NCBI RefSeq assembly: GCF_004010195.1
Contig: NC_057718.1
Location: forward strand, 101,699,463-101,726,813
Origin: Chiloscyllium plagiosum
Taxonomy: Eukaryota
Length of the DNA stretch: 27,351 nt
Direction of reading: 5' to 3'
Below the pieces are notes generated by a model that saw only the letters and a list, made by a program, of their open reading frames with translations, did not search any database and was not told the origin of the DNA. Shown one piece after another: positions 5,930 to 27,351 of the stretch; the stretch's first letter is position 1; each line of letters starts with the position of its first letter. A program made the position numbers and the translations under genes.

Positions 5930-5982
5930 ATAGAGTCATAGAGATGTACAGCATGGAAACAGACCCTTCGGTCCAACCTGTC
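5930..5982 (-). mobile_element. Short CR1 LINE 3' tail
   Basis: atagagtcatagagatgtacagcatggaaacagacccttcggtccaacctgtc is nearly identical to 20296-20348. Confidence 0.75.
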
Positions 5983-6645: not shown

Positions 6646-6702
6646 CACATTCTCACCATTAAATTAGAACCAGAACTGTTTATCATTTAAACACCAGTGT
6701 TT

Positions 6703-6996
6703 TTTCTTCATTTACTGGCTAGGCCAGTATTTGTTGCCCATCCCTAATTACTCACAAGGCAGTTAACCACATGTAGGCCAGGCCAGGTAAGGATGGCAGG
6801 TTTCCTTCCCAAAAGGGCATTAGGGATGCAGTTGGATTTTCCCCCAACAATTGGCAACTCTTAATTCCAGATTCCTTTTCATTAAATTCACATTCCACCA
6901 TCTGCTGTGGCGGGATTTGAATCTGGGTCTCCGGAACATTCCCTGGGTTTCTTGGTTAATAGTCCAGCAATAATACCACTGGGTCATTGGCTCCCC
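6703..6996 (-). mobile_element. SacSINE1-like DeuSINE (tRNA head, Deu domain, LINE-derived tail)
   Basis: Minus strand: A-box-like CCCAGTGGTATTA, B-box-like AGATTCAAATCCC, Deu-like GGGAAGGAAACCTGCCATCCTTACCTGGCCTGGCCTACATGTG, and tail ATTAGGGATGGGCAACAAATACTGGCC. Confidence 0.7.
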
Positions 6997-8935: not shown

Positions 8936-8990
8936 AGACAGCATTTGTGAATTAGTTACAGAGTACAAAGAGAAAATTGTCCCATTTTCC

Positions 8991-9024
<34 letters not shown>
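8991..9024. repeat. (CT)n microsatellite
   Basis: ctctctct... run with one interruption. Confidence 0.95.
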
Positions 9025-9104
9025 GCCCCAGAGAGAGAATGCAGATTAGCAAAATTAATGTAACTCAATAGGTTACACAAGCCTTCCTCTCTACTCTACA
9101 TTAA

Positions 9105-9260
9105 AGTTTACTCCCTAAATTACATCTCTCTCTTTATCTCTCTTTTCTCCTTTAAAGCATGTGTAAAATCCACCTCTTTCACCACATCCTCAATCACCTA
9201 ACTTACAATTTCCTTCCGTAGCTTAGTGTTTTATAATACTTTTGTGAAATTGGAGCTGGG
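9105..9260 (+). mobile_element. Degenerate L2-type 3' fragment
   Basis: actccctaaa...ctcctttaaagcat...aaaatccacctcttt...tgtgaaat is similar to 1748-1912. Confidence 0.45.
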
Positions 9261-9276
9261 AAAAGATAGCTACCCT

Positions 9277-9316
9277 CAGTTCTGAAGAAGGGTGATTGGA
9301 CTCGAAAGATTGACTG
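9277..9316 (+). ncRNA. Minimal type I hammerhead ribozyme motif (helix III mutated)
   Basis: CAGUU-CUGAAGA-A-GGGU(GAUUGG)ACUC-GAAA-GA-UU^-GACUG. Helix I has 5 bp, helix II has 4 bp. Confidence 0.7.
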
Positions 9317-9400
9317 TTTCCCTCTCCACAGATGCTGCCAGCTGTTTCCTCCAGCACTTTTTTTGTTTCAGATTTCCAGCATCCACAGTCCTCTCTTTTG
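9277..9400 (+). mobile_element. Penelope-derived HHR-bearing short element (family C)
   Basis: HHR followed by ctctccacagatgctgcc...ccagca...tttccagcatccacagt, the tail shared with 13908-14006 and 22793-22980. Confidence 0.75.
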
Positions 9401-9404
9401 TTTT

Positions 9405-9522
9405 TGGGAATCAAGGGTTACAGGGTCAAGGCAGGACAGTGAAGTTGAGGATTATCAGATCAACCATAGTCTTATTGAATGGCGGAGCAGACTGGATGGG
9501 CTGAATGGCCTAATCCTACTCA
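9405..9522 (+). mobile_element. CR1 LINE 3' tail
   Basis: gggaatcaagggtta...agatcaaccatagtcttattgaatggcggagcagact...gggctgaatggcctaatcct is homologous to 12115-12225. Confidence 0.7.
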
Positions 9523-10639
9523 GGCATCATACAATCTCTCATTTGTTTTTGTTAAACCTGGCGAATATTGTTGTACAATCTGGCTAAGCCAATGGTACCC
9601 TCCTGACCATTGTACATCTTATGGTGCTGGTGTGAATGTACTGGCCATCTAACACCACACAAAGTTCAAATTTCAAAGTACTTTTGGTGAGTCTGTTGTC
9701 AACCATGTTGAATTTCATTTGCAAAATTGTATACATTCTTTGAAAGCTGCTTATTTTAAATAACTGCTTAATTGTAGGTTGTGATGTTTGAATTGTTTGT
9801 CCTTGTTTTAAAGGCTTAAGCAAGAAATGAGAGTCTACCACTTGCCAAAGCACAGGCCAGGGCACTAAGCATGTGTCTACCAATTTAGAATAGGCCGGGT
9901 ATGCGCACACTATCTTGCTTCAACCATGACTTGTTACCCCAAGCCAGGACCTGGGCAGACTTCATGTTAATACCTTGTCAAAAAGAAAGTCAGGAGATTA
10001 ATGGAGCTGACCTGCTGGGCACTAACATTTCTGTGTTTATTAAACGTCTGTATGTGTGTGTTTTGGGTTACTTAGAGGGCTAAACATTTATATTTTCATG
10101 TTACAAACTGCACGTGCTCAGTAGGGTGCAGCGAGCTTTTCCATCACAACACTAGCTGGCACCATCAATCCTGTCGTCAGCCCATTTATAATGGCTGGAG
10201 ATTAATCCACTTTCTCCCCAGTTGTGAACTATTTGGAGGACAGAGCACACCCTAGCATTGGGAGCACTAACTCCCTCTATGCAGATAAATCTGCCACTTG
10301 GAATGTAATATATGGATGATACAGGAAACTATTCTATTGGAGCAGTGGCGCTCATTAATCACATTATTGATCATTGGAATTCACTGTTAATGTGATTTTC
10401 GGTCGATTGGATCCCATTTCTTTACCAGAGAGCATTGACACATGGCTCACAAAAACATATAGCAGAGGTTAGAGTATACAAAATGTCACCTTGAATTTTT
10501 GTTTTATTTAAAATATAAACTAGCCAAAAATGTATTTGTTTCCAGTCAAGGAATCCTGTCTGTCACATGATTGTTCAGGTGACATTTCAGCTTGTTAGAC
10601 AAATACAAAAGCCACTTTCTGTACAATACAAACTATTTC

Positions 10640-10790
10640 TGGTACAGAAAGTGGCCAATCAGCCCATTTGGTCCATGCTGGTGTTCATTCTCTGCACAAG
10701 CCTCCTTCCATCCCCTCTTCATCTCAATCCTTGACATATCTTGTCTCTTTCCTTTGTGTGTTTATCTAGCTTATCCTTAAATACATCCAT
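10640..10790 (-). mobile_element. Old CR1 3' tail
   Basis: ggccaatcagcccat...ccatgctggtgtt...tttatctagcttatccttaaat. A reverse-complement relative lies at 12933-13075. Confidence 0.55.
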
Positions 10791-10805
10791 TTGTCCGTGT
10801 TGTAC

Positions 10806-10890
10806 TTTGATTTATTTATTATCACGTATTTATTTTTACAAAATAAAATGAAAAATGGTGTATAGTGTCGCCAGTCTCCAGCGCCAGTTT
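10806..10890 (-). mobile_element. Probable non-LTR retroposon 3' tail (Rex1/L2-like)
   Basis: tttgatttatttattatcacgta...aaaatgaaaa...tgtcgcca resembles 22113-22205. Confidence 0.4.
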
Positions 10891-11859
10891 AAAACACGGA
10901 AAAGTAAACCAAAACATAGATCATAAAGGCAGAAAAATAAAGAAATAATGAAAAAGTGTTCAACTTTATAATCCTTTTTAAGTGCTGTGTTGTGAGCATG
11001 GCGATTAGACACAAGTGCCCTTCACCACACCACAAATACACCCTGTTTTCACCACTGTTCAATGAAGATGCAGAATTGGTGAGCACGCGCAGTCTGTAAT
11101 ATGAAAATATAATGGTTTAGCCCTCTAAACAGGCACACACATTTTAGCATTTTAGCTAAAGAGAAAAAATAGATATCTGGCTGTGTACTTCAAAAAGAAA
11201 AACACTTTTTGTCAAATGGTGACTAATCTTGATAAGAACAGGAAATTCAAACATCAATTCCAAAGTGTCTTGCACGTGTGGTCAAGTCACTAATCAGACA
11301 TGGTTTTCTCTGGGATATTGACAGGCACATCTTGCTCAGGAACGCAACGTTGATAAATTCTTTCTGTTGCTTCCCCAGAAGAACAATCTTTTTTCTTCAT
11401 TCAAATACAAGCTTGTTTCATTCTGGGTTTCCTCAAGTGAAACATCCAAACACAAAATGGAAGCTGGGATACACTGTTCCAAACAGAACAGCTGTCAATA
11501 CCCTGTGGTAAGAGAGTCAGGTGTTTTCCCTGCAATGAGTCCAAGTGACCAAGACCAGCCGTTACCTCATGGTTTCAAAAAAATTTCAAAGTGTCTTTTC
11601 AATATAATCTTTAAAAAAAATGAAGCTATCTCCAAAATCCTTCAAACTCAAGACAACAAAAATGACCAAAAATTGGCCAATACGTTATTGTTGTTACGTA
11701 CAAAATATTGTAGGCTTTTTTACACTGCAAGCTCCTATAAACCGCAATACAAAATGAAAAAAAAAAATCAATTTTGAAGAAATTGACTGAGATAAATATT
11801 GGCCAGTGGAGCAAGGACACCTGACCGCCCATGGGCAGTTACAAACTGCAATTTAGCAG

Positions 11860-12242
11860 AAATGAGGGGGGATCTTTATAGAAACACTATGAAGGGAATC
11901 GATAAGATAGGAGTCGAGAGGATGTTTCCACTGGCAGGTAAAACTAGGTAAAGAGGGCATAGCCTCAAAGTTAGCGTGACCAGATTCAGGACTGAATTAA
12001 GAGGGAACTTCTTCACCCAGAGGGTTGTGACTCTGTGGAATTCCCTGCCTGGTGAAGCGGTTGAGGCTTCCTCGTTGAATGTTTTTAAAGCTAAAGTAGA
12101 CAATTTTTTGAACAGTAAAGGAAGTAAGGTTATGTTGAGTGGGCAGGTAAGTGGAGCTGAGTCCATGAAAAGATCAGCCATGGTGGACCAGGCTCGAAGG
12201 GTCAGATGGCCTACTCCTGCTCCTAGTTCTTATGTTGTTATG
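11860..12242 (+). mobile_element. CR1 LINE 3' fragment (ORF2 C-terminus and tail)
   Basis: Translates to RFRTELRGNFFTQRVVTLWNSLPGEAVEASSLNVFKAKVDNFL, a hallmark CR1 ORF2 end. Tail is ctactcctgctcctagttcttatgttgttatg. Confidence 0.9.
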
Positions 12243-12651
12243 CAGCAGGATACAGCGACCACAGATTTCAGGATGTTTTTCCTGTATTGAGGGCATTATT
12301 TATCAATGAGTTGTTGCTGTTCACATGCTGCCTTCAGCAACAAAGGGGTTCAGCCAGAGTGGTGAGCACTCCTACCTCACAATGCCAGGGACCCAATGTT
12401 GGACCCCACCCTTGGGTAACTGCATCCTCTGGTTACTGACTCTCTTGTGAGTACAAGACAGTTTCTCCCTTGTTACTATGTGATCAGTGCCTGCCTGCAG
12501 ATGGAGCCCTTTGTTGTTGAAGGCAATTGGAGGCTGAATGGCCTCCTCCTGTTCTGACATTCCACCTACTACATTGGAGTTCACTGCTGGCTGAGGTGCT
12601 GCTGTCTTCCCTTCTTTTCATTTCATTGCCAAATTAGAACAAGTCGAGTTT

Positions 12652-12935
12652 TTTTTAATTTAGTCATTTGTGGGAGGTGGGCGTCGTTGGTTGGGCCCAG
12701 CATTTATTGTCCGTCATTAGTTGCCCCTTGAGAAGGTGAGGTTGAGCTGCCTTCTTGAACCACTGGAGACCTCCTGCTGTGGGTTGACCCACAGTGCTGT
12801 TAGGGAGGGAATTCCAGGATTCTGACCCAGCAGCAGTGAAGGAATGGCGATATATTTCCAAGTCAGGATGGTGAGTGGCTTGGAGGGAAAGTTGAAGGGT
12901 GGTGGCATTCCCATATATCTGCTGCACTTGTCCTA
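12652..12935 (-). mobile_element. LINE (second family) 3' end
   Basis: LQATHHPDLEIYRHSFTAAGSESWNSLP, homologous to 8255-8515. Confidence 0.8.
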
Positions 12936-13907
12936 GATGGTAAACACATGAGGGAGAAAGGAATAGATGGATGTGTCAATGGGGTTCAGTTGGGTGGGTG
13001 GGAGGTAGCTCGCCTGGAGAATAAACATTGGCAGAAACCTGGTGAGATGTCTAACCAGTTGCTGTTCTGTAAAAACTTTGCTGTATTGATTCAGGAGTCT
13101 GCAAGAGGTCCCGGAGGTGATATGGCTGCAATTGTGTATTACCATGAATAAGTGAATCTGGGGCTGTGGTGCACAGGGACACGTTGCATGGCTTGAACAT
13201 TCAGTCTGCCCTATGACATACTTCCTTCCAGCCTTGATTCAAATTAAATGCCATTTTTGAAATGTACTGTCCTCCTCCATCTAAGTTTCTTTATTCAAAG
13301 TTCCTTCAATGGTGAGTTTTCCGATAATTACCGAGCATAATAAATGCTGACTCTGTGACATTCCAAATTAATCTCACTCAAATCAAAATCCAGTTTTGAT
13401 TCTTTCAGTAGTTTCCCACTGAGGCTTTAATGTCTGAGTGAACAAAAGTCTCATTTTGTTTTTTCATTCAAATTGTTTCTGAATATCAATTTTGCAGAGC
13501 CTGAGGCAGCCAGCCCAGTAAGGTGGACTGAATCTGAATCAGGTCCAGTCTGAAATATTAGAATATTCTGAAAAATCAGGTCACTTTTGATAAAAGATGC
13601 CACGTAGAGGAATTGATGGAAACTCATTCCCGATCTTTCACAGCTCATCAAAGTTGCATAGTTGATTTCACACAACCTAAAATCTCCACTAAAATGGTTG
13701 ACATCTTGGACACAGCTGTGGTAATAATGACGATGTGTGAAAACCTATTTCACCAATATTACGTTAGATTTAATGTGTGATATAATTTTATAGCTCTTTT
13801 TTTCTGAATAAAACTGAATTAAAGTAAGTAAATCCATCATAATTCACAATTTCAATCTGTTTCCTTGAAATAAATTGATTTGATCTTAATCAAAACCATC
13901 ACTAACA

Positions 13908-14006
13908 CACAAACACCAAGTGCTGGAGAAACTCAGCAGGTCTGGCAGCACCTGTGGAGAGAAATCAGAGTTAATGTTTCAAATCCAGTGACCCTTCTTC
14001 AGAACA
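13908..14006 (-). mobile_element. 99-bp TSD-flanked HHR mini-element (family C)
   Basis: Perfect 11-bp TSD catcactaaca at 13897-13907 and 14007-14017. Contains an HHR plus the conserved tail. Confidence 0.85.
13970..14005 (-). ncRNA. Minimal type I hammerhead ribozyme motif (weakened helix II)
   Basis: GUU-CUGAAGA-A-GGGUC(ACUG)GAUUU-GAAA-CA-UU^-AAC. Confidence 0.65.
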
Positions 14007-14272
14007 CATCACTAACATTTCAAAACTCAATTATTAGTGTATTTCTTCTGCGAATTCTCAAGGTAAATAAATAGTTAATTGCTAAAATATTTTCTTTCAG
14101 TGTTAGATTTTGATTTCCTTCCAGTCATTCCCTCAAAATGGCTCTCAATGCTTTAAAAATTCAGCACCTTAACATTGAAAGGAGGTTGAAAACAGAAGTG
14201 AAGTAAACAGCTTAAAACCAATAGCGAGTGTAACCAGCCTTCCCTTGGGTAAAAAATGTCACTTACCTTTGT

Positions 14273-14492
14273 GGGAGCAAATTACTGCAGACACTGGAAT
14301 CTGTACTGAAAACAATAAATGCTGGAGGTCACAGCGGGTCAGGCAGCATCCATGGAGGCAGTGAGAGCAAGCTAACGTTTCTAGATGATGTCACATCAGC
14401 TCTGATGAAGAGTCATCTAGACTGGAAACATTAGCTTGCTCTCTCTCCATGGATGCTGCCTGACCCGCTGTGATCTCCAGCATTTGCTGTTT
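14273..14492. mobile_element. 220-bp palindromic head-to-head dimer of an HHR mini-element
   Basis: Inverted arms at about 14307-14399 and 14402-14495 around catcag-ct-ctgatg. 14-bp TSD tcacttacct(t/c)tgt at 14259-14272 and 14493-14506. Confidence 0.85.
14398..14436 (+). ncRNA. Minimal type I hammerhead ribozyme motif
   Basis: AGCU-CUGAUGA-AG-AGUC(AUCUA)GACU-G-GAAA-CA-UU^-AGCU. Confidence 0.75.
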
Positions 14493-14938
14493 TCACTTAC
14501 CTCTGTCCTAGGATTGGTACTGGACCCTCAGCCTCTGCTATAGCCATGACCACCACCATGGCATCTGCTGAGTGACCTCTGGGAGCCAGGATAGGTCTAT
14601 CTTGTTCAAAAGGTACACAATCTATAGGCAGTCAGTCCATGTGACATTTTATAAATTCCCACTTTTGAAATAGAACCAGTCTGACTCAAGGTTGAAATAC
14701 AGACAGACTCTAACCTCACAACTTCAATGCATTGTATGGGCACCTTTCCTTTTAATAAAACCTTAAGTTATCTTGGGAATCTGATGTGAAAAAAGTTAAA
14801 CCTGCATCCCCAGTCTAAATGATTAAAGACTTAACAGCAATCTAGGTTTAAACAATGACTGCAGATGCTGGAAACCAGATTCTGGATCAGTGGTGCTGGA
14901 AGAGCACAGCAATTCAGGCAGCATCCGAGGACAGGCAA

Positions 14939-14974
14939 AATCGACGTTTCGGGCAAAAGCCCTTCATCAGGAAT
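14939..14974 (-). ncRNA. Minimal type I hammerhead ribozyme motif with intact core
   Basis: AUUC-CUGAUGA-A-GGGC(UUUU)GCCC-GAAA-CG-UC^-GAUU. Perfect helix II, palindromic ACGU helix III, weak helix I. Confidence 0.8.
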
Positions 14975-15104
14975 AAAGGCAGAGAGCCTGAAGCGTGGAG
15001 AGATAAGCTAGAGGGGGGTGGGGGTGGGGAGAGAGTGGCATAGAGTACAATAGGTCAGTGGGGAAGGAGATGAACGTGATAGGTCAGGGAGGAGAGGGTG
15101 GAGT

Positions 15105-15369
15105 GTGGGCCACTGGGCGATTTGGTTGATTGGTGCGGGTGTCTCGGAGATGTTCCCTAAAGCGCTCTGCTAGGAGGCGCCCAGTCTCCCCAATGTAGAG
15201 GAGACCGCATTGGGAGCAACGGATACAATAGATGATATTAGTGGATGTGCAGGTAAAACTTTGATGGATGTGGAAAGCTCCTTTGGGGCCTTGGATAGAG
15301 GTGAGGGAGGAGGTGTGGGCGCAGGTTTTACAGTTCCTGCGGTGGCAGGGGAAAGTGCCAGGATGGGAG
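15105..15369 (-). pseudogene. Penelope GIY-YIG endonuclease fragment
   Basis: PGTFPCHRRNCKTC...FTCTSTNIIYCIRCSQCGLLYIGETGRLLAERFREH shows the IIY...YIGET motif, the catalytic R and the Cys motifs of PLE endonucleases. Confidence 0.9.
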
Positions 15370-16049
15370 GGTTTGTTCAATACATCGCATCAATTGGATG
15401 ACATTTTGATCTTTTGCTATAAATTCTGTATCCTATGATTCTGCTCCACAACCACCTGATGAAGGAGCAGTGCTCTGAAAGCTGATGCTTCCAAATCAAC
15501 CTGTTGGACTATAACCTGGCATTGTGTGATTTTTAACTTTGTCCACCTCAGTCCAACACCGGCTCCTCCACATCACAGCTCTAGCTGGGTGAGATCTCTA
15601 TACCTGGCTCCTCAGTTGGCAGCAAAATCTTCACTATAAGAAGCAGCACTGATATCCTGGTGTTTTTGTAGGTAGCACACAAGTGACCAACCTATCGAGG
15701 AACAGGCTGTGGAAGGAGGGGCTGAGTGCTCTCCTTCTTTGTCTTTATGGTCCAGTTAGGAACTTGCAATGAATCCTGGCAAACCTTTGGCTAACTGAAA
15801 AGGAACAATTGCCAGAGAATAAGTGTCTCAGTAAAGAAATTGCGGATATAGCCTCTTCAGTACTAATGAACAAAACATGAAGCTAAGCCTCCTGATAAAC
15901 TGGAAGATGTGATTTGAACAACAGAAAATAAGGAAATAGGTTGTGAGTGTGTAAATGGAGACTTGCTGACACCAAGTACACAGAGGAAAGCTCTCCCAGT
16001 GAAAGATCACACCCAACGCTGTTAGTTACATGGCAAGGGGTACAGTTCA

Positions 16050-16525
16050 CATCGAAGATGATTATTATTAAACCAGAGAGGGTTCAGAAAAGATTTTGCA
16101 GGGTGTTGCTGGGACTGGACGGCGTATGATATAAAAAGTAGTCTGGAAGCGTTGTGACTTTTTCACTGGAGTGTAGGAGGTTGAGGGGTAACCTTATAGA
16201 GGTTTATAAAATCAGGGATATAAGTAAGGTGGTTGACAAGAGTCCTTTTCCTAGGGTGGGGGAGTTCAAAACCAGGGGGCATAGTTTTTAGAATGAGAGG
16301 AAAAAGATTTAAAAAGGGTATGAGGGGCAACATTTTTACACAGACAGTGGTTCATGTGTGGAATGAACTTCCAGAGAACATAGCGGACATTACAACACTT
16401 AAAAGGGATTTGGATAAGTACACAAGAAGGAATGGTCTGGAGGGTATGGAACTAGTTTGAACACATGATCAGCATGGACCAGTTGGACTGCAGGGTCTGT
16501 TTCCATGCTGTATGACTCTGTGACT
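16050..16525 (+). mobile_element. CR1 LINE 3' fragment
   Basis: ERVQKRFCRVLLGL and MRGNIFTQTVVHVWNELPE...LKRDLDKY, with tail ccatgctgtatgactctgtgact. Confidence 0.9.
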
Positions 16526-16934
16526 GTATAATGTTCAGAAACGCAGCTCTGCAGTTACTGGTCTTGAAATATTCTGCCTTTCATCTTCCTGTCACGCTGA
16601 AGTAACCTGCCAAATAAATTCATAGCAAAGAAACAGGTCGTTTAGCCTGACTGATCCATGCTGGTTATTAAGCTGCACACAATCGCCCTGCCATCGGCCT
16701 CCCCACTATCTCGATCTGTTCCTTGTGTCTTGATGTAGCTTCCACAGAAACAGCCCTCTCGTTTTTTCCAATATATTTAACAATGAACTGCAACTCTTTG
16801 AAGAAATGGAAGAGTAAGCATATTGCAAAATGTTACCATTGTATCCCATCACTTTGAAATCACAACACAAAAACAGGCCATTCAGCCCCTTTGAAAACAA
16901 CAGCTGGTTATTCTCATGGATCCCTGTGTTTCTT

Positions 16935-17172
16935 CAGCAGAGTGGACATGTTACTGGACTCAGACTTCAAGGGGACAGAGTAATGCTCCAGTACCATCTG
17001 CTGCTCCATCCTCATCTGAACTACCTGTGACTCCAGACCCACAGCAATGTAGATGGATGGAGGACTACACTCTCTGAAAAGTTTGAGCAAGTCACTTCGT
17101 TTGAGGGCAATTAAGGATGGGTCACAATTGCTGGTCTTGGCAGCCACACCACAGCTCACAAAAGAGTAAAGA
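16935..17172 (+). mobile_element. Degenerate SacSINE1-like DeuSINE
   Basis: ctacctgtgactccagacccacagcaatgt...gggcaattaaggatgggtcacaattgctggtcttggcag, related to 6703-6996. Confidence 0.6.
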
Positions 17173-18665
17173 AATACTGTCCTGTGGAGTGCCTTGGTAC
17201 AATGATGCAAGTTTATCAATGTTAACAAATATTAACATGGCAGTAATCTATTATTAACCTCATGCAAACTGCTAATGAACTACATTTCTATAGCTGCATT
17301 CTCAGACTTGCATTCTGGTGTCACTACATGAAGGCTGCCCTTCTTTGCTGAGCTTGCCTGAGGAAAATACAGTTACATCGCTACTTTGCGGTTGTCATGT
17401 AGTTAATCTAAAGACTTAAGTCTTTACTCACACCTCGCTGTTAAATTACTCCATCCTCACACTGCACTTGACTGAGAATTTGTCTTCCAGCCTCTGTGAA
17501 ATTTTTTGAAAAGATCAATCAGCCAGCAAAGACAGCCATGAACAACTCATATTAAAAGTGTTCAGGTAAAGTGATGCACCTCCGTGACATTCTGAAGAGC
17601 CCTGGTATTAATAACCAGTCCTCACTGAACTTCACCATCACTCACACCGAAACCCAGTATTGATTGAAAACTGTAACATGGAAAGTGATCAGTTATATCC
17701 CATGATGGTAAATTGACTACCAACCTATAGTTTAATGGTAGCAGTTCCTTTCTTTCACATGAAACTGCGTGCACTGCATCTCGAAATGCACTTTATTGTC
17801 GTTTGGTTATAGCATCCTGATTTTCATTAGTGTTTGCCTGTCAATGGAGTGTAGGGTCTGATGGAAGATTTGTCTTTCATTGGGCTTGGCAAAGAAATTC
17901 CTTCTTTGCAGTGACCTTTCCAGTTGCCCATTTACTCAGCCAAGGTTGTCAGGTTGGTCTTAGCCAATTTGACACAAAAGGAAAGCTTGCATTGTGGTAG
18001 TGCAGCCCCACATCTTAAAGTCCATTGTTGCCAATGATTGAAAGGGTCAACCCAAATCATCTGATCAGGGAGAGCCAGAACAAGGGGCTTCCAGTCTTCA
18101 GCTGTAGGGATTAGGCCATTTACAAGGCAAACCCACAAGAACTTTTTGAAAAAAATAGCTATTGAGAACCTGGACTTCTGCTGTTTGGGATAGGACAGCA
18201 ATATTGTACCAATGGGCAGTATGGTGGCAGAGATAAGCTGCAGAGATCAAAATAAGACTGAAATGGCTTGATTTGGAAAATGTGTGAGTGGATCTTAACA
18301 GTATTTCCAATAGAGATGAATAAGAACAAAAATTTTAGGATTTTTCAAATCACTGTAGTTCAAATCCCAAACCGTAATATTCAAACTAAAGAACAACAGA
18401 ATCCACTAAAATGAAGAAACGAAAAATTCTGGATAATGGCTAAATTTTACTACAACAAACTATTTAGTTAATACTGTTTTATTTTCGCATTCTAAACTAT
18501 AGAAGGGGTATTTACGCTCACACACTCGACAGAGTTACAATCCATACGACAAATAGAACTGCTGTTAGCTTCCAATGGATTCACATATTTGCCAGTTTCA
18601 CCAAGTGGCTACATCAAGGCACTATCCTTAGATTTCAGAGAATTTCCCAAACACACAACCAGTAA

Positions 18666-18953
18666 CTCAGTGGTTAGCACTGCTGCCTCACAGCGCCAAC
18701 TGACCCAGGTTCGATTCCCACCTCGGGTGACTGTCTGTGTGGAGTTTGCACATTCTCCCCGTGTCTGTGTGGGTTTCCTCCGGGTGCTCCAGTTTCCCCC
18801 ACAAGCCAAAGATGTGCAGGCCAGATGAATTGGCCATGCTAAATTGCCCATAATGTTAGGTGCATTAGTCAGGGTAAATATAGGTTTGGGAATGGGTCTA
18901 GGTGGGTTACTCTTAGAGGGTCGGTGTGGACTTGTCGGGTCGAAGGGCCTGTG
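18666..18953 (+). mobile_element. HE1-like V-SINE
   Basis: A-box remnant CTCAGTGGTTAGCAC, B box GGTTCGATTCC, V-domain TGTGTGGAGTTTGCACATTCTCCCCGTGTCTGTGTGGGTTTCCTCCGGGTGCTCC, and a CR1-type tail. Confidence 0.9.
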
Positions 18954-19084
18954 TGAGTGGATCTTACTGTAGGGAATTGTGCCATCTTGTCAATGAGGCA
19001 TTGATTGGGTACATCTATTGCGCAGCCAGTTTCAATGAACTCATGGCACCGACTACACTGTCACCTTCAAAAGCAGGGACATGC

Positions 19085-19235
19085 CATCAGAAATGGAAAT
19101 GGGAACACAGCAACCAGCGTAGGCCATTCTGCCCCTCAAGCCTGTTCCACCATTCAATGGCTGATCTGTGTCCCAACATGCTCTACCTGCCTTTGGCCCA
19201 TATCCCTTTGCTTAACAAAATAATTATCTAAGATT
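19085..19235 (-). mobile_element. CR1 3' tail
   Basis: gtaggccattctgcccctcaagcctgttccaccattcaatggctgatctg. Confidence 0.6.
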
Positions 19236-19409
19236 TGAATGGTCTCCTCTCATTACATATGAGAGTGTGTTGAAAAGCTATAAAGTAGCACAGCCAGCAC
19301 AAAGCTGACGCTGTGTGGTTTAAATAACATATAGAAAACCATAAGAAACCCATCAAGTCAAGCCTGCGTTTCTCAATTCTGTCTCATTACACAGCTACTT
19401 TCCACAGGG

Positions 19410-19533
19410 ACAAGAGCAAAACACTGCAGATGCTGAACTACAAACAGAAAACGCTGAACAGTCTCTGGATTTGTCAATAACTTTGGAGAGAGAATCAGAG
19501 TTAATGTTTCGAGTCGATGATTGTATAGCAGAA
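19410..19533 (-). mobile_element. Decayed family C HHR element
   Basis: Minus strand ...gactcGAAACATTaactctgattctctctcc...cagcatctgcagtg. The CUGANGA box has decayed. Confidence 0.6.
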
Positions 19534-20294
19534 GATGAGTATTTCCATCTGATCCTACTTTCATTCTCTAACACATTTGGTAATCCATCTTGTTCTTTGC
19601 TGGATTCTGTCCAATATATATGTAGATAGCTACTGGCATGTTCATCAAAATAAGACACAGTGCTGCAATTGGAACCTGATTGATTATTGCTCAATATTCA
19701 CTGGACATCGCACATCGCTAATATCAGGAGAGACCATGTCCCACAATGGAGAAGTTAACTTTTAACATTTTAACGTTTAATGGCATTAGCATGATGAAAC
19801 TCTCCCAGTATCAAAATCCTGGGGCTTACCATTAAACAGAACTGACCTAATTACTGTTGGGGATGAAGAGCAGGTCATTGGCTGGGAGTCTGGGGGTCTG
19901 CAGCATGTGACTCCCCAAAGCCTGTAATGGATCAGAGCAGACCCCCTCAGAAAATATTTCCAGAAAGTAGCCTAGACCCTAATGCTTTCTTACTTCTAAA
20001 GACAAATGTAAAAAGTCTGTTCCCGACGCAACACGATTGGTCAAACTACTTGATGTGAAGCAAAATACAACCAAACAAAGAGGAATTTAGAATAACTTAA
20101 TAGATTGGAAACTCAAAAGAATAAAAAATACAGTAACTATTACTGATTAACTGTTCCAATATAATAACATTCCCATAAACACACTCCTTAGCAAAAAGGA
20201 AAATTCAGACACAGATTCTCACATGTAGTTCTCCAATCCAGGAGGAAAAAGGCATCAAAAGAAAATTCAGAGAGAGTAGCAGTCTGGAAACATT

Positions 20295-20545
20295 CATAGA
20301 GTCATAGAGATGTACAGCACGGAAACAGACCCTTTGGTCCAACCTGTCCATGTTGACCAGATATCCTAAATTAATCTAGTCCCATTTGCCAGCAGTTAAC
20401 CCATATCCCACTAAACCCTTCCTATTCATATACCCATCCAAATGCGTCTTAAATGTTGTAATTGAACCAGCCTCCACCACTTCCTCTGGCAGCTCATTCC
20501 ATACACACACCACCCTCTGCTTGTAAAACTTGCTGCTTAGGCCCC
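20295..20545 (-). mobile_element. CR1 3' fragment nested in the LTR-like element
   Basis: Tail catagagtcatagag. The minus strand encodes RVVCVWNELPEEVVEAGSITTFKTHLDGY. Confidence 0.9.
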
Positions 20546-20682
20546 ATCATACACTTTTGAGACCCCAATATCTTCTGATGTTACTGAAAAAAAACCAAAA
20601 CCCATACATTTGGACCTGTGAGAGCTGTCCACACCCAGTCAGGCTGCATTAAAAAAAGTCTCCCAAGGTGTCTACAGTCGCC

Positions 20683-20778
20683 ACGATCAACCACCTGATG
20701 AAGGAACAGCGCTCCGATAGCGAGTGCTTCCAAATAAACCTGATGGACTAGAACCTCGTGTTGTGTGATTTTTAACTT
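20683..20778 (+). mobile_element. 96-bp TSD-flanked HHR mini-element (family A, decayed core)
   Basis: 12-bp TSD tctacagt(c/a)gcc at 20671-20682 and 20779-20790. CAC-CUGAUGA-AGGAACAGCGCUCC-GAUA-GCGA-GUG. Matches 15449-15540. Confidence 0.85.
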
Positions 20779-20988
20779 TCTACAGTAGCCTGTTTGGTAC
20801 CTCTGCCTTACAACCTCTCTTCAAAACAAAACAGACAAAATAACCTCTTAAAGTGACAGCATAATCACACACCTACCCTTCCCCACGCCCCACCCCCAAC
20901 AATGCTAAAAAGGCTTAACATCACTTAGAACGAAGGAGCTTATTAGATCAGCAGCCACTAACTCCAGCCTTTGCTCCCTCTAACAGCA

Positions 20989-21011
20989 ACACACACACAC
21001 ACACACACACA
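20989..21011. repeat. (CA)n microsatellite
   Basis: acacacac... run. Confidence 0.95.
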
Positions 21012-21372
21012 ATGGAAGCAGTGTGTACAATCTACAAGATGCACTGCAACAAGGCTCCTTCAACACCTTCCAGACTCACACCCTCCACTTTGAGGGACAA
21101 GGAGTTCAAGATGTCAACACAAAACCAGCTTTTCCTGGCTAAAAACAGAGATATACAAGAAATATTAATCTTGCAAGTGATGCTCCCACCCCATCAATGA
21201 AAGATTTTATCTAAGCTTTTCCATTTCAAGACAATTTCTTGACCAATCAGGGGCAACTAAAAATATTAGCTCCATTTTCTGTCCACAGATGATTCAAGAC
21301 TTGCTGAGTTTCTTCAGCAATTTCTGTTTTTGTTTTGTTTCAGCGTTAACTTACCTGGTTTAAAATTTAAAC

Positions 21373-21472
21373 TTTCCTGATGAAGGCCTTATGCCCGAAA
21401 CGTCGATTCTCCTGCTCCTCGTATGCTGCCTGACCAGCTGTTCTTTTCCAACACCACACTCTTCGACTCTGA
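21373..21472 (+). mobile_element. 100-bp TSD-flanked HHR mini-element (family B)
   Basis: Perfect 14-bp TSD tttaaaatttaaac at 21359-21372 and 21473-21486. Homologous to the reverse complement of 14880-14972. Confidence 0.9.
21375..21406 (+). ncRNA. Minimal type I hammerhead ribozyme motif
   Basis: UC-CUGAUGA-A-GGCC(UUAU)GCCC-GAAA-CG-UC^-GA. One helix II mismatch and a 2-bp helix I. Confidence 0.7.
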
Positions 21473-21592
21473 TTTAAAATTTAAACGAAGCTTGACAGTT
21501 CCACAAGTCAGAGTTGACTCACTGACCAATCAGACCTTTCTCTTATGTCATACAAACGTTGTTTTAACCCTCGAATTGGTATTCTTGCAAAG

Positions 21593-21626
21593 TGTCCTGA
21601 TGAGTGTAACGTGAAAAGATTGGATA
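21593..21626 (+). ncRNA. Decayed hammerhead motif of a fourth family (D)
   Basis: UGUC-CUGAUGA-GUGUAACGU-GAAA-AGAU-UG-GAUA. Core boxes and helix I are present, but helix II and the cleavage triplet have decayed. Confidence 0.5.
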
Positions 21627-21929
21627 AATTATCTTCTTTATAGCATTACTCAAGATCTGTCCTCCCAAACAACTATGTTTAATATGTATAGAACTGTGCA
21701 TTGTATATATTATATCTATGTGTGTTTATTATTCTATTTCAGATTTCTTAGTTTAGCGTTTTATTCCATTTACTGATTGTTTGTCTGTACTGAACAGGCA
21801 TTGATGAACTTACTTTCCTTCCTGGATCTTTGTTGTCTCCTCCTTAAATTTAGTCAATGTCCTGGAATCCACCACACTCTTGAAGCTCTTCATCTTGAAA
21901 CTATCAGGACAATTCACAAGAATACCTGT

Positions 21930-22617
21930 GTAAAGGGAAACAGTCATAAAGTAGACATAGAGAGGATGTTACTTCATGTGGCACAATCTGGAATGAGAGG
22001 TCATAGTTAGGAAAAGGTGGGTAGCAGATTTAAAACAGAGATGAGGAGAAATTATTTCTCTCTGTAAAGGTTCATGAATCCATGGAACTCATTCCCCCAG
22101 AGTGCGGTGGTTGAATGATTTATGATTTACTGTCACTTGTACTCTACAATGAACAATGCGGTAAAATACAATGAAAAGCTTCAACTGTCGCCACAGCCAG
22201 GTGTCACTGAATTACTTCAAGAATAAAACGTCAAAGCTGAATGAACGTCCATCTTCGCCCAGCCATCTCCACCACGAGCCCTGAGCCCAGAGCTGACCGA
22301 CCAACCACACCAGGGCCAGACCCACCAATGTCGGAGTTACCTCTCCTCAGGCACCATCTCATCGGCGCTGAACCCAGCTCACTGACAGGCCGCTGATTCT
22401 AGCTCCCGTGCTGGACCCACACCCGCCTCACAACCAGGAATCCCTGGCTCCGGGCCTACCACAACCAGAAGACCCCAACTCTGGGCTTAACACAACCAGG
22501 AGACCCCGACTCTGGGCCTAACACAACCAGGAAACCCCAGCTCCAGGCCTACCAGAGCCAGGAGACACCGACTCTGGGCCCATTACTCCTGCTCCTAGCT
22601 CTTATGCTATGTTATGT
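21930..22617 (+). mobile_element. CR1 3' fragment (21930-22112 plus tail 22583-22617), interrupted
   Basis: KVDIERML...GMRGHS...FKTEMRRNYFS...WNSFPQSAV, with tail actcctgctcctagctcttatgctatgttatg. Confidence 0.8.
22429..22581. repeat. 31-bp minisatellite, about 5 units
   Basis: Units start at 22429, 22460, 22491, 22522 and 22553. Consensus is cacaaccaggagaccccgactctgggccta(a/c). Confidence 0.95.
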
Positions 22618-22792
22618 TTCATTAGTGATCTTGCACATGGAAAATATCAGGGTGTAAATTCTTAGGGTGAGATGAACGTTTGAGAAGTCTCTCCTCTCAC
22701 AGACTCAGTTTCACAGGTAAGTAGGTTTTCTGCCAAATTTTTTTAAAAAAGAGAGAGAATGCAAAGTCTATCATGGAACTTTAACTGTTACA

Positions 22793-22980
22793 CCTGGCAG
22801 CATCTGTGGAGAGAAATCAGAGTTAACATTTCAGGGCGAGTGACCCTTCCTCAGAACTCGATCTGAGTAACAGTCAGTCAATCTGAAACATTAACTCTGA
22901 TTTCTCTCCACAGATGCTGAGCTTTTTCCAGCAATTTCTATGTTTGTCTCTGATTTACAGCATCCACAGTTCTTTAAGTT
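22793..22980. mobile_element. 188-bp palindromic head-to-head dimer of a family C HHR element
   Basis: cagcatctgtggagagaaatcagagttaa (22798-22826) and ttaactctgatttctctccacagatgctg (22891-22919) form a perfect 29-bp inverted repeat. Perfect 13-bp TSD tttaactgttaca at 22780-22792 and 22981-22993. Confidence 0.85.
22820..22859 (-). ncRNA. Minimal type I hammerhead ribozyme motif
   Basis: GAGUU-CUGAGGA-AGGG(UCACUCG)CCCU-GAAA-UG-UU^-AACUC. Perfect 5-bp helix I. Confidence 0.75.
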
Positions 22981-23869
22981 TTTAACTGTTACATCTGTTG
23001 GGTGTGAACGTTTAATTTGATAATTGTCTTTCAAATAGGAAGAAGTGTTGAACATTTCTGCACAGTTCCTGCTGCAGCTCAGGCAGTTAGTCAGGCGCAG
23101 GCAAGTTCCAAGGTTTTAGAATGCGACTTGTCAAACACGGAAATCTTGTTTAACTCAAGCACTGGGTTTTGGAAGCTCAAACATTGCTGCACCGAAATTA
23201 AATTTTGTTGAGGTAATTTGATCTCAAGATTTGCAGATTAATTTTTAGTCCAATTTTTAAAGTGGCTCGCTTTGATAGAGTCCATTAAAAGTGCCTATAG
23301 CTTTCCCAGTTAGACAGACTGTGTGTGTGTGTGAGTGTGTGCATAATTGGCATCTTTAATGCTCATTTGGTCGCACAGTGTATAATTGGATTTTGAACAT
23401 CAGAAAAATCTGACAGATTCAGTTACCCAGGCCACTTAAAGCCCTCAAGGTTGTTTAATTTATGAGGAGTTATTCCAAGCACAGTAGAAAATTTATCAGT
23501 GGATGGAATCCTGATTTGATTGTCTGACATGCTGCTAAACAGGGACCCAGACTGCACAGATTGGTTTACCATCGCCCCACGGGACTTATTTAATCATTTA
23601 ACCCAGCTTTGAAAAGTAAACATGAAAAGTGAGGTCTACCTAAAAGGAAAAAGCACTCTGTCTATCAGACTGCATTCCACTGATATGACTCAGTGAAATA
23701 TTTTAGAAGCGACTTGCGAATCACTTGGATTTTTCAAAATCGTTCCTTCAGAAAAATTAAGGGATTGGGCTCACAAATCTGCAACTCGTTACAGGAAAGG
23801 GATAAGGTCACTGAGACTTCAATTCCATCACAGCTGATTTGTACTTTGACTCCATTCATCTACCTTTGC

Positions 23870-23965
23870 TGGGCTGGTGCGGTGGTAGTGTCCCTGCCTC
23901 TGAGCCAGGAGATCCAGGTTCAAGTCCCACCTGCTCCAGAGGTGTGCAGTAACATCTCTGAAAAT
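23870..23965 (+). mobile_element. tRNA(Gln)-like short SINE
   Basis: A box TGGTGCGGTGG, CTCTGAG anticodon-like loop, B box GGTTCAAGTCC. A diverged inverted relative lies at about 25445-25535. Confidence 0.6.
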
Positions 23966-24274
23966 ACCTCCAGCTCGACTGGCTAACCCTGATTCCCCTT
24001 CTCCAACACATTTTTAGTTAACCTGCTCCCCGCTCCCTCCCAGTTTCATGGCTCATTTATGTGAAAGCGATTGAATAAATCCTTCCTCCCAAAGGCCTGG
24101 TTGGACTCTTTTTGTGCGGAAGGAATGGCTTTGGAGTAGGTACAGCATGGAATGAGGCCATTCAGCCCAACTGGTTAGGCCTATGTTCTTGTCTAACCCT
24201 ATAAACACAATGCTTTTTTCATCATCCCTCATCTGTTGGATCTTGGAGCAGTCTATACCCACATTCCTCTCCTG

Positions 24275-25212
24275 CTCCCTGGGTCACACAGCCTGGACAA
24301 AGACCCTCTGGCCCATTGTCTCCATGCCGGTCATCAAGAACCCATCCATTCTAATCCCATTTCCCAGCACTTGGCCTGTAGATTTATAATCATAGAATCC
24401 CTGCAGTATGGTAACAGGCCATTTGGCCCAACAAGTCCACACTGACCATCCAAATTGTAACCCACCCAGACCAATCCCCTACACTATTAATCTACATTTA
24501 CTCCTGCCTAATGCATCTAACCTACACATCCCTGCACACTAGGGACAATTTCCCAGAGCCAATCCACTCTAACCCGCATATCTTTGGGCTGTGGGAGGAA
24601 ACCAACGCAGACATGGGGAGAATGTGCAAACTCCACACAGACAGTCGCCCAAGGCTGGAATCGAACCCGGGACCCTGGTGCAGTGAGGCAGCAGTGCTAA
24701 CCACTAAGCCACCGTTGAATTTGTTGTGGTGTTCTGAGTGCTCATCTAAATTCTTCTTCAATGTCTTGAGGGTTCCTGCCTCACGTATCTTTTTAGGCAG
24801 TGAGTTCCAGTTACCCGCCACCCTCTGTTTTCCCTCCAATCCCTTCTAAACCTCATGCTCCTTACCTTTAAATTGTGTCCCTGGTGGTCATCTGCTCTAC
24901 TAAAGGGAAATGTTTTTCCCTGTCTCCCCAATTCATGACCCACTGAACTTTGTATGTCTCAGTTAGGTCTCCTCTCAGCCTTTTCTGTTGTGAGGAGAAC
25001 AACCCTGGTCCATCCTGTCTCTTTGTAGCTGTGTTGCTCCAGCCCAGGCAACATCCTGGTGAATCTCCTGCACACCCTCTCCAGAGCAATCACATCCTTC
25101 CCATAGTCTGGTGGTGACCAGAACCACACACAGTACCCCAGCTGTGGCCTAACTAATGTTATATACAGCTCCATCATGACCTCCTTGCTGTAGCATTCAG
25201 TGCCTTGGCTAA
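24275..25212 (-). mobile_element. CR1 LINE 3' fragment interrupted by an HE1-like SINE
   Basis: ELYITLVRPQLGYCVWFWSP..KDVIALERVCRRFTRMLPGL, KRLRGDLTETYK and WNSLPKKIREAGTLKTLKKNLD in shifting frames. Confidence 0.9.
24388..24714 (-). mobile_element. HE1-like V-SINE
   Basis: Minus strand GGTGGCTTAGTGGTTAGCACTGCTGCCTCAC...GGTTCGATTCC...TGTGTGGAGTTTGCACATTCTCCCC, homologous to 18666-18953. Confidence 0.9.
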
Positions 25213-25749
25213 TAACGTGGTAGTGAGTTCCATGCTCTCCCCACTCTCTGGGTAAAGAGGTTCCTCCTGAATTCCAGGTTGGATTTGTTGGTGACCAACT
25301 TATATTTAAGACACCAATTCTGGACACACCCGTCCACCCAATCAAACCTTTTCATGATGTTAAAGACCTCTGTCAGGTCACTTTGGTGTTTTCTGGAGGG
25401 ATAGAAAGGCTAAGGCTGTTAAATGCATTCTGATCCAGGTAGATTTTTCCAGTCACCCTGACACACCTCTGGGGGTGGGGGCACTTGAACCCAGACATTC
25501 TGCCTCTAAGCTAGGCTCACTACCACTGTACCACAGAAGCGTCTCTGACAGGCATAACCTCTTCATGCTATTGTCCATGTAATTGTTTTTATCCACCCTA
25601 TCAAAACCTTGAGCCATATCAACCCTCTCAATTAGATGCTCCTCTAATTGTCAGAGACTCATGATGTGGAGGTGCCAGTGCTGAACTGAGGTGGACAATG
25701 TTAAAAATCACACAACACCAGGTTATATTCCAACAGGTTTATTTGGAAG

Positions 25750-25784
25750 CACTAGCTTTCGGAGCACTGCCCCTTCATCAGGTT
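25750..25784 (-). ncRNA. Minimal type I hammerhead ribozyme motif with intact core
   Basis: AAC-CUGAUGA-A-GGGGC(AGU)GCUCC-GAAA-GC-UA^-GUG. 5-bp helix II and palindromic AGCU helix III. Confidence 0.8.
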
Positions 25785-26202
25785 GCTGTGGGGCAGGATC
25801 ATAAGACACAGAATTTATAGCAAAAGATCACAGTGTCATGCAACTGAAATGATATATTGAACAAACCTAGATTGCTATTAAGTCTTTCATCTTTTCGAAT
25901 GGGTTGCCAGTTTCCGTTTGTTAATATGTAAATCCCAGAACTTCTTTTAAGTCCATTATCAAGATAACCTAAGATTTTATAAAAAAAAAGGTGACACCTC
26001 AGCTCAGACAACAAATGCATTAAAAGTGTGAGTTAGAGTCTGTCTGTATCCCAATCTTGAGTCAGACTGGTTCGATTTCCAAAGTGGAATTTATAAAATA
26101 TTACATGGATTGACTGCCTGCAGATTGTGTGTTTTTTGAGCAAAATAAAATGTATCTGCAAATATAATTGTGCAAATACAAATTCACCCCATAGACCTAT
26201 AT

Positions 26203-26392
26203 ATGTGTGTGTGTGTGTGTGAGTGAGTGTGTGCATATGTGTGAGCGCATGTGAGTGTGAGTGCGCATGAGTGTGTGTTTGCGTGTGTGAAAGCTTGATA
26301 AAGTGTGTGTGAGTGTGTGATGGAATATAAGCCTTTGAGATGCTGCGGGCATGGGTGTGAGTGTGGAAGGTGTGTGTATAGTGTGTAGTGCA
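26203..26392. repeat. Degenerate (TG)n/(CA)n tract in the Penelope 3' UTR
   Basis: tgtgtgtg/gagtgt runs. Confidence 0.9.
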
Positions 26393-26398
26393 GTGGGT

Positions 26399-27168
26399 TC
26401 ACCTGTATTGTGACATGAACCCAAGGTCCAGGTTGAGGCCATCCCCATGGGTACTGAACTTGGCTATCAGCCTCTGCTCGGCCACTCTGCGTTGTTGATT
26501 GTCCCGCAGTCCGCCTTGGAGCACGGCCACCCGAAGGTCTGGGGTCAAATGTTCAGGACCACTGATGTGTTCTCCAACTGGGAGGGAACACTCCTGTCTG
26601 TTGATTGTGCGGTGTCCATTCATCTGTTGTCGTAGCGTCTGCTTGGTCTTGCCAATGTACCAAAGCCTCAGGGCATCCTTGCCTGCAGTGTAAGAGATAG
26701 ACAACGTTGGCTGAGTTGCATGAGTACCTGCCGCGTACATGGTGGGAGGTGTCCCCACGTGTATTGGAGGTATCCATGTCGACACTCTGACACGTCTTGC
26801 TGGGTCTGCTGTGACAGGGTTGTACGGTATTGTCCTGAAAGCTGGGCAGTTTGCTGTGAACAATGAGCTGTTTGAGGTTTGGTGGTTGTTTAAAGGCAAG
26901 AAGTGGAGGCGTGGGGAAGGTCTTGACGAGGTGCTCATTCTCATTGATAACGTGTTGCAGGCTGCGAAGAACATGGCATAGTTATTAGGCTCCCGGGAAA
27001 TACTGGACAAGGAAGGGAACCCTGTCTGTTGCAGCCTGTGTCTGTCTCCTGAGGAGATCATTATGGTTTCTCACTGTGGTACATCAGAACTGGCAGTCGA
27101 TGAGTTGAGCATCATCCCTTGTTCTTATGAGGGCATCCTTGAGCACCTTTAGGTGTCTGTCATGTTTC
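26399..27168 (-). pseudogene. Frameshifted Penelope ORF C-terminus (GIY-YIG endonuclease)
   Basis: One frame gives YSCNSANVVYLLHCRQGCPEA. It continues in another frame as WYIGKTKQTLRQQMNGHR...PVGEH...RRVAEQRLIAKFSTHGDGLN (VVY..YIG, R, E and GLN motifs). Confidence 0.9.
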
Positions 27169-27351
27169 TAGGAGAAAGTGAGGATTGCAGATGCTGGAGA
27201 TCAGAGCTGAAAATGTGTTGCTGGAAAAGCGCAGCAGGTCAGGCAGCATCCTAGGAGCAGGAGAATCAATGTTTCAGGCATGAGCCCTTCTGAAACGTCA
27301 GTTCTCCTGCTCCTAGGATGCTGCCTGACCTGCTGCGCTTTTCCAGCAACA
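27169..27351. mobile_element. Palindromic dimer of a family B element with deleted apex (runs off the window)
   Basis: Perfect 50-bp inverted arms at 27216-27265 and 27302-27351. The spacer holds only the GAAAC halves of two opposed HHRs. Confidence 0.9.

Follow-up and report, generated by a model that had tools for sequence, protein, structure and literature searches.

The question raised by a 27,351-nt stretch of the bamboo shark genome (Chiloscyllium plagiosum, contig NC_057718.1) is what its many minimal hammerhead ribozyme motifs are and how they arose. We identify them as the pseudo-long terminal repeat (pLTR) ends of several Penelope-like element (PLE) families; these are of a known kind and do not constitute a separate ribozyme retroposon. 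A first-pass annotation of this stretch (hereafter the window, whose positions serve as coordinates; −n and +n are counted from C3 of the hammerhead core) had proposed a diversified ribozyme-retroposon population. This is not supported, as the copies are ordinary PLE ends, mostly decaying stubs with insertion-specific junctions. We propose that the motifs are minimal type I hammerheads of PLE pLTRs, and that most copies are probably dead-end run-off complementary DNAs (cDNAs) made from capped, uncut 5′ ends of element RNA.

Family profiles built from a genome sample (119 fixed-position 10-kb pieces on contigs C1-C36, 1,146,519 non-N bases) recovered 17 hammerhead-plus-tail pieces in 9277-27351 and none in positions 1-9276, which confirms that the window motifs are real as pieces of this type. 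The assignment to minimal type I PLE hammerheads of several families stands, and the window holds five families (A, B, D and E, with A in two subtypes). The seven main motifs recorded before, at 9277, 13970, 14398, 14939, 21375, 22820 and 25750, were all confirmed, each with a full CUGANGA..GAAA-NN-UH core. Three of them (9277, 13970 and 22820) are matched by a descriptor requiring a helix I of at least 3 bp, which on 40 Markov-shuffled windows gave a mean of 0.125 matches and a maximum of 1. Every decayed copy in the earlier inventory was also recovered, but two had been overlooked, 21250-21336 (+) and 21876-21926 (−). With 17 pieces against 6 expected, the window has about three times the average density of the genome, although some 10-kb genome samples hold 10-11 copies. 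The pieces are:

9277..9392 (+): family A1 stub with long tail; hammerhead at 9277-9316 with full core, helix III not palindromic; a search around the stub found no target duplication.
13905..14005 (−): family A1 stub with decayed helix II, matched by profile; target duplication 13896-13907 / 14006-14017 (12 bp, 1 mismatch).
14276..14497 (inverted arms): family A2 head-to-head pair, found as an inverted repeat and by profile; 14276-14386 (−) truncated with long tail, 14397-14497 (+) with core and short tail; target duplication 14259-14272 / 14493-14506 (14 bp).
14598..15575 (+): family D 3′ fragment, split by a family B1 insertion (self-BLAST); the 3′ untranslated region (UTR) occupies 14598-14849 plus 15370-15450, a decayed hammerhead begins at 15451 and the tail reaches 15575.
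14854..15369 (−): family B1 copy with GIY-YIG fragment, part of the upstream pLTR, intact hammerhead and long tail; hammerhead at 14974-14939 (−), predicted cut between 14943 and 14942; GIY-YIG open frame at 15084-15389 (−) with Cx4CxxC linker.
19415..19517 (−): family A decayed stub, 5′ half of the core gone, found by profile.
20690..20784 (+): family D stub with decayed core (GAUA) and short tail with AATAAA; target duplication 20671-20682 / 20779-20790 (12 bp).
21250..21336 (+): family A decayed stub, newly recognized (profile E 3.8e-14).
21374..21478 (+): family B2 stub whose core is full but for which one helix II pair is mismatched; target duplication 21355-21372 / 21469-21486 (18 bp).
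21576..21652 (+): decayed hammerhead-like copy of family E, an old, low-copy family.
21876..21926 (−): second family E copy, newly recognized, inverted relative to 21576-21652.
22794..22975 (inverted arms): family A1 head-to-head pair, in which the (−) arm, 22794-22858, has the core and the (+) arm, 22860-22975, the long tail; target duplication 22780-22796 / 22981-22997 (17 bp).
25662..27160 (−): family D 5′-truncated element with broken frames, simple-repeat tract, 3′ UTR, hammerhead and tail; broken reverse transcriptase (RT)-thumb/endonuclease frames at 26399-27070 and 26553-26981; intact hammerhead at 25784-25750 (−), predicted cut between 25753 and 25752; AATAAA at 25743-25738, then a GU-rich stretch; the tail stops at the start codon of an open reading frame (ORF).
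27174..27351 (inverted arms): family B2 head-to-head pair, both cores truncated, right arm entering an assembly gap.

Reads and contigs connect 14844/14849 with 15370-15409, bridging the B1 insertion in the D fragment.

The coding remains beside these pieces are those of PLEs. The B1 motif at 14939 sits downstream of a GIY-YIG fragment whose linker reads CHRRNCKTC, and the D motif at 25750 sits downstream of a broken RT-thumb/endonuclease region, for which a first look gave 32,278 candidates genome-wide. Two motifs had been placed just 3′ of GIY-YIG ORFs; Pfam GIY-YIG matches only the frame at 15084-15389 (E 2.3e-5), and that at 26399-27070 has no Pfam match, has its endonuclease motifs spread over two frames and ends about 615 nt from its ribozyme. 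D copies score against Pfam RVT_1, and the features of endonuclease-bearing (EN+) PLEs are present in loci L162, L161 and L164. L162 is a near-complete D element with tail, start codon, RT, endonuclease, 3′ UTR, hammerhead and tail. Long copies are flanked by inverted 5′ copies. Among the 120 RT homologs listed, the best named relatives are shark proteins, up to 81-85% identical in Chiloscyllium, and there are no named Neptune reference elements. The RT-endonuclease linker, of the form CX2-5CxxC in B and surviving as a decayed equivalent in the window D copy, points to a possible affiliation with the Neptune clade; this linker is common to Neptune and Nematis (PMC8557442).

The families differ in what accompanies their tails. 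The family A tail is homologous to the B tail, family E shows no homology to other family tails and no ORF was found for it, and family F neighbours a different RT type in L168. Coding remains of family B consist only of endonuclease and RT-thumb fragments; apparent B frames of 850-1375 aa proved to be runs of N, so no full B element was recovered. Assembly gaps recur inside long or inverted PLE copies (L149-L160 and the right end of the window), and full-length elements and pairs are therefore probably undercounted. The family B tail, for example at 14854-14942 (−) and in L172, carries several branch-point, polypyrimidine and AG motifs resembling 3′ splice sites, which, at more than half a million copies, could be exonised.

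As ribozymes, the copies are ordinary and mostly dead. Despite their full cores, five of the seven main motifs are structurally decayed. Three of the helix II pairs in 13970 are G-U, position 10.1/11.1 is G.G in 14398 and, in the family register, G-U in 22820, helix II of 21375 contains a C.C mismatch, and the helix III palindrome of 9277 is gone (GA). Only 14939 and 25750 combine G10.1-C11.1, a helix II of at least 4 bp, a palindromic helix III and NUH, and their helix I has just 2 contiguous bp each. The helix I pairing CAC/GUG described earlier exists in 15453 and 20692, whereas 25750 instead has AAC. In monomer folding, helix I plus helix II forms the minimum-energy structure for 9277 and 22820 only. 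Six of the seven motifs are no more stable than shuffles, and the exception, 14939, folds better (z −2.2), yet in a non-hammerhead register. Unremarkable monomer folds are expected, because the motifs are thought to work as dimers (for the dimer result, see Lunse et al. 2017, cited via PMC6765202). A search of the window against Rfam at E ≤ 1 gave zero hammerhead family matches, and its microRNA-like matches on the palindrome at 27216-27351 were rejected as chance.

The minimal type I core with helices I and II is present in the family majorities as well as in 14939 and 25750. Among the 64 strict cores of the genome sample, 50 have a helix II of at least 4 bp and a helix I of at least 2 bp, and 35 have the palindrome in addition. 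The extra nucleotide after A9 is A in families A, B and D and U in F. The helix III palindrome at 15.2-16.2 is ACGU in B and AGCU in D, with G10.1-C11.1; full-core copies of A and F are few, and CpG decay moves their majorities to G-U and CA/UG. The claim that the helices vary yet still pair is borne out at the family level: across eight subfamily majorities, where each position shows 2-5 pair types, 59 of 64 majority helix pairs are canonical, a count attained by 0 of 10,000 shuffles (the families are related, and five of the eight subfamilies have 2-7 members). Counting pairs in the 11 window copies alone gives no significant result (114 of 500 shuffles; two family E rows are misaligned). 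As the covariation reaches significance at the family level and not in the window copies, selection likely acted on source elements rather than on dispersed copies. In family B the common variants sit in N7 and loop II, and the stem GGGC/GCCC is retained in 84 of 122 copies. One of the few direct tandems, a head-to-tail duplicate of a B stub from the start site beside a CA repeat (L159:4612-4855), could form a dimeric hammerhead.

The very large copy number that had been anticipated was confirmed. In the 3.56-Gb genome the exact 28-nt B1 core of the 14939 copy occurs 18,175 times, and the strict core pattern 197,380 times vs 275 for a reversed-pattern control. The strict pattern has 64 matches in the sample, the same density as genome-wide. 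Family profiles found 378 copies there (B 211, A 90, D 49, F 28), occupying 3.2% of sampled bases, and zero in the reversed sample sequence; extrapolation gives 1.1-1.2 million copies in total. Family E has 5 more copies in 1.15 Mb. Family F (L032, L040, L045, L094, L168), which is absent from the window, comprises three subtypes with a longer helix II. The word ‘Penelope’ does not occur in the main text, as accessible, of the bamboo shark genome paper (PMC7677710), and a literature search that missed most subscription journals surfaced no paper on shark hammerheads.

Most copies are stubs of 95-130 bp that begin 4-8 nt upstream of the core. Core-bearing A, B and D copies for which 300 nt of upstream sequence were available number 217: 84 belong to tight inverted pairs, 92 lack homology upstream to any other copy and 41 extend. 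Conservation drops upstream of the A at −4 in A and B (TCAGTT, TCATTC) and upstream of −8/−9 in D (A at −8). Family F, an internal control, shows no such step; 22 of its 25 copies extend upstream and none is in a tight pair. We take the context of the A at −4 or −8 to resemble an RNA polymerase II initiator. In Drosophila Penelope, the transcription start site lies inside the pLTR (PMC2377424).

An extra G often precedes the start. D copies with a non-C base at −9 (995 genome-wide) show 81 G, 9 A and 10 T among the first 100 listed, with G in 16 of 100 at −10 and 25 of 100 at −8, and B2 copies show 59 G, 28 A and 13 T at −5 among the first 100 listed (8,090 genome-wide); these G counts were made by eye, and the background G frequency is 26%. 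Two pairs, C2:43379303/326 and C2:44328398/420, carry a G on both arms.

A second recurrent form is the head-to-head pair: 151 of the 378 sampled copies (40%) have a head-to-head partner within 60 nt, against 4 for tail-to-tail. Flanking duplications, 10-17 bp long, accompany 32 of the 76 entries and 6 of 300 random sites (threshold at least 10 bp), and both complete window pairs carry one. A/B pairs combine one long-tail with one short-tail arm in 53 of 58 cases, where independence predicts about half; the long tail is found in 81 of 180 unpaired copies. A natural reading is that each pair consists of two run-off cDNAs that became joined end to end.

The templates were copied across the uncut ribozyme site. 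The 5′ ends do not accumulate at the cleavage site: only 9 of 378 copies start there, and of 20 long ORF-bearing copies one begins near it. RNA reads came from X20, a single-cell run of poly(A) RNA that may be from a related species, of which about 2% was read, with multi-copy mapping. On a young D copy, their depth stays level from one side of the cut site to the other (1050, then 1012). A store of working catalytic RNAs, as had been suggested, is not supported, since the copies were made across the cut site and RNA reads cross it undiminished.

These features can be combined in one scheme. One hammerhead sits shortly before the ORF start; a second copy past the ORF end leads into a tail, for which two alternative ends exist in the genome. 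Transcription would start at the initiator-like A, which precedes C3 by 4 nt in A and B and by 8 nt in D. The RT-endonuclease would cut both DNA strands and prime at two internal tail sites, as an anole PLE does in vitro. It may use the tail nearest the cap, so that the cDNA stops after 95-130 nt, often with one base added opposite the cap that would appear as the extra G. One cDNA would yield a solo stub; two cDNAs, one per strand and start site, could be end-joined into a head-to-head pair within one target duplication. Long copies might arise from the downstream tail on read-through, tandem or circular RNA, or by a jump through the terminal repeat. The ribozyme itself, judging by the literature, would be a weak dimer- or protein-assisted cutter kept by selection on source elements, with dispersed copies decaying and mostly inactive. 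The scheme agrees with the cutting and extension of both strands, the two internal starts and the use of unprocessed RNA described in PMC11167929.

Several observations weigh against this scheme. The X20 reads show no start pile-up, the loose ends listed include no template-switch tag, and 5′ ends were not observed directly. Families A and E have yielded no coding partner, and assembly gaps left us with no B copy in which the tail runs into the ORF start. B2 starts are scattered over −4 to −7. In 60 loci checked by script, the G is present in 31 of 32 paired loci, where at least 11 of the Gs are explicable by the opposite arm, and in 10 of 24 solo copies (P=0.07; four long copies were removed and two short-armed inverted B2 loci counted as solo), so that pairs give a strong signal and solos a weak one. 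Junction microhomology biases the control positions too, making them T-rich. In LINE-1 work the cap is reportedly copied as an extra base, which a literature look-up did not confirm.

Family D also contains a functional poly(A) site. X20 A-tails fall at +57 (311 reads) and +60 (359 reads) from C3 on a D copy, and at the same two sites on the window's D copy (383 and 472 reads). Genomic A-runs were rejected as the source of these reads, having 0 copies in this genome (the run is possibly from a related species). The hexamer is AATAAA or ATTAAA in 112 of 129 D copies. The poly(A) sites lie 12-15 nt past its end, directly before a GU-rich stretch and about 30 nt past the cut site of the uncut ribozyme; both genomic 3′ ends are further downstream, by about 25 and 60 nt. 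As these ends lie beyond the poly(A) site, the polyadenylated 3′ end cannot template them, and hence they must stem from the copy of the terminus at the 5′ side or from read-through RNA. Read depth drops to about a third past the poly(A) site; this residual depth, together with 174 reads with an A-rich loose end at the far D tail end, makes read-through RNA possible. Families A, B1, B2 and F have no hexamer at that place, and subfamily B3 has one further down.

Long terminal repeat (LTR) retroelements have U3-R-U5 ends and form minus-strand strong-stop DNA, with tRNA priming and an integrase. In family D, too, the poly(A) site falls between the putative start site and RT initiation sites. We tentatively raise the possibility, although the odds are against it, that D replicates like an LTR element without tRNA or integrase, its pLTR being a true U3-R-U5 whose strong-stop cDNA jumps via the ribozyme-bearing R to the polyadenylated 3′ end. 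Taken jointly, this would place the cap at −8 and the RT starts past the poly(A) site, with target-primed reverse transcription setting out from U5 close to the cap, and would make stubs failed jumps, the tail U5 and partial tandems repeated jumps. Exact D tail-ORF junctions occur at 83 loci, of which 50 were examined, and 20 of these continue at least 400 nt into the ORF. Seven of the 20 are truncated between core and start codon, one enters an assembly gap and 12 reach the core; nine of the latter run on into an upstream pLTR (eight aligned, L293 by eye) and three stop at or near the start. Run-on in 9 of 12 ORF-bearing copies compares with 13 of 30 unselected copies (P 0.09) or 38 of 100 by eye (P 0.03). 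It fits tandem or circular templates at least as well as repeated jumps, and strand transfer is therefore the minority reading. Crossovers inside R, sought by eye in 44 D and 60 B long copies, gave one clear chimera. In this copy (L234:1450-1650) the sequence changes at the start site from B1 upstream pLTR to B2, which supplies the hammerhead and the first tail, and the tail end after that is B1-like; the arrangement suggests possible template switching between subfamilies. A literature search that missed most subscription journals surfaced nothing on strong-stop, cap or poly(A) in PLEs.

Alternatively, the stubs and palindromes could be self-propagating non-autonomous elements (like short interspersed nuclear elements (SINEs), miniature inverted-repeat transposable elements or retrozymes) that are transcribed and copied as units, as the first-pass annotation implied, which we think improbable. 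Family A, without upstream homology in any of its 39 unpaired copies and with no coding partner found, would suit such an origin, as would the few identical pair junctions that recur at separate places and the existence of tandem non-LTR retrozymes related to pLTRs (10.64898/2026.07.22.740005). However, pair centres vary between insertions, and stubs share subfamily variants with ORF-linked copies. Same-strand abutting neighbours are also rare (3 of 378 copies), none forms an array and the window contains no tandem; with direct tandems this rare and no arrays, the copies do not qualify as non-LTR retrozymes.

It is similarly doubtful that the pairs reflect fold-back self-priming on an antisense template, with the start a hairpin-prone site and not the cap. 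Such self-priming has been proposed for rotifer PLEs (PMC3846280), many pair centres are short perfect palindromes or microhomology, and RNA of both orientations covers family B about equally. It nevertheless fails to predict the identical start in solo stubs, the non-templated spacers at many centres and the G on both arms, and the long-plus-short tail rule fits two separate priming events instead. Finally, the stubs are unlikely to be ordinary 5′-truncated copies, left where the RT drops off past a structured, protein-bound ribozyme and given their G by repair microhomology: although strong 5′ truncation is typical of PLEs (PMC8557442), about one third of copies start inside the core or tail and the solo G excess is weak, the step falls at one initiator-like A per family at differing core distances (4 vs 8 nt), the G excess is confined to one position (81% vs 16% and 25%), and family F, with a similar ribozyme, has no pile-up.

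The window contains other repeats. A 31-nt GC-rich unit has five tandem copies at 22429-22583. Inverted arms of 49 nt at 10072-10120 / 11080-11128, 90% complementary and 959 nt apart, match no hammerhead family profile and are possibly the ends of another element. A repeat of about 290 bp with a tRNA-like head occurs at 18666-18952 (+) and 24414-24708 (−), 71% alike; it resembles what we presume to be the shark HE1 SINE. The fragments at 11876-12229, 16130-16500, 20296-20530, 21950-22110 and 24959-25351 resemble 3′ ends of long interspersed nuclear elements (LINEs) of CR1/L2 type. Two frames from these LINE-like fragments gave zero matches against Pfam.

Run-off copying of capped, uncut RNA bears on points that the available text of PMC3846280, PMC8557442 and PMC11167929 leaves open, namely the origin of PLE tails, inverted ends and partial tandems, and the role of the hammerhead. 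In this genome, about 1 million fossil intermediates, some 3% of the DNA sampled, can be read to the base at their junctions. These favour a sense, capped, uncut template with two-strand priming, and give exact start, poly(A) and RT-initiation sites. The copies also spread many poly(A) signals through introns, and those of family D are used in RNA. We consider that the value of the system lies in its scale and in what the junctions reveal of the PLE mechanism, that is, of how a poorly understood class is copied.

Minimal hammerheads were described in metazoan PLE pLTRs, with about 4,000 in coelacanth and 9,000 in Xenopus (Cervera and de la Pena 2014, PMC4209133). The shark copies share the type I core, the extra nucleotide at A9/10.1, G10.1-C11.1 and the palindromic 15.2-16.2, as well as several families per genome, mostly single motifs from truncated PLEs, and opposite-strand pairs. 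They differ in number, with about 197,000 strict cores and 1.1 million copies here (the descriptors differ), and in spacing, as the pairs abut within 60 nt and are not 100-700 bp apart. The fixed 5′ start, the extra G and the poly(A) site are not described in the accessible text of that study. Non-LTR retrozymes (Li, Clavereau, Pollet 2026; 10.64898/2026.07.22.740005) are tandem hammerhead units, with a maximum of 14,255 in axolotl. They likewise have type I hammerheads related to pLTRs in vertebrates, including one cartilaginous fish, and dispersed monomers, whereas the copies studied here are dispersed singles or inverted pairs and not tandem repeats.

As in Neptune EN+ PLEs (PMC8557442, PMC3846280), the RT is followed by GIY-YIG with a CX2-5CxxC linker between them, and there are partial tandems, an inverted 5′-truncated copy, a tail at one end only (30-40 bp in those elements), palindromes at inverted junctions and target duplications. 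Unlike in the Neptune elements described there, stubs and stub pairs dominate. Arkhipova et al. 2013 (PMC3846280) considered head-to-head junctions formed via self-priming on antisense RNA and left the matter open; our evidence favours a sense capped template. For the anole Poseidon element PAc, Frangieh et al. 2024 (PMC11167929) showed in vitro that both strands are cut and extended, that RT has two internal starts corresponding to the tail ends, that uncut RNA serves as template and that insertion does not need the ribozyme. PAc belongs to another clade and its ORF begins inside the ribozyme, whereas that of family D begins about 90 nt past the cut site; the accessible text does not contain ‘polyadenyl’, ‘strand transfer’ or ‘template jump’. 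Family D differs from an LTR element in that nicked target DNA, and not tRNA, would serve as primer and in having no integrase. A, B1, B2 and F have no hexamer there; in D the LTR-like layout comprises a putative start site, a short repeat with a poly(A) signal, a downstream RT start and a short cDNA that would end at the cap.

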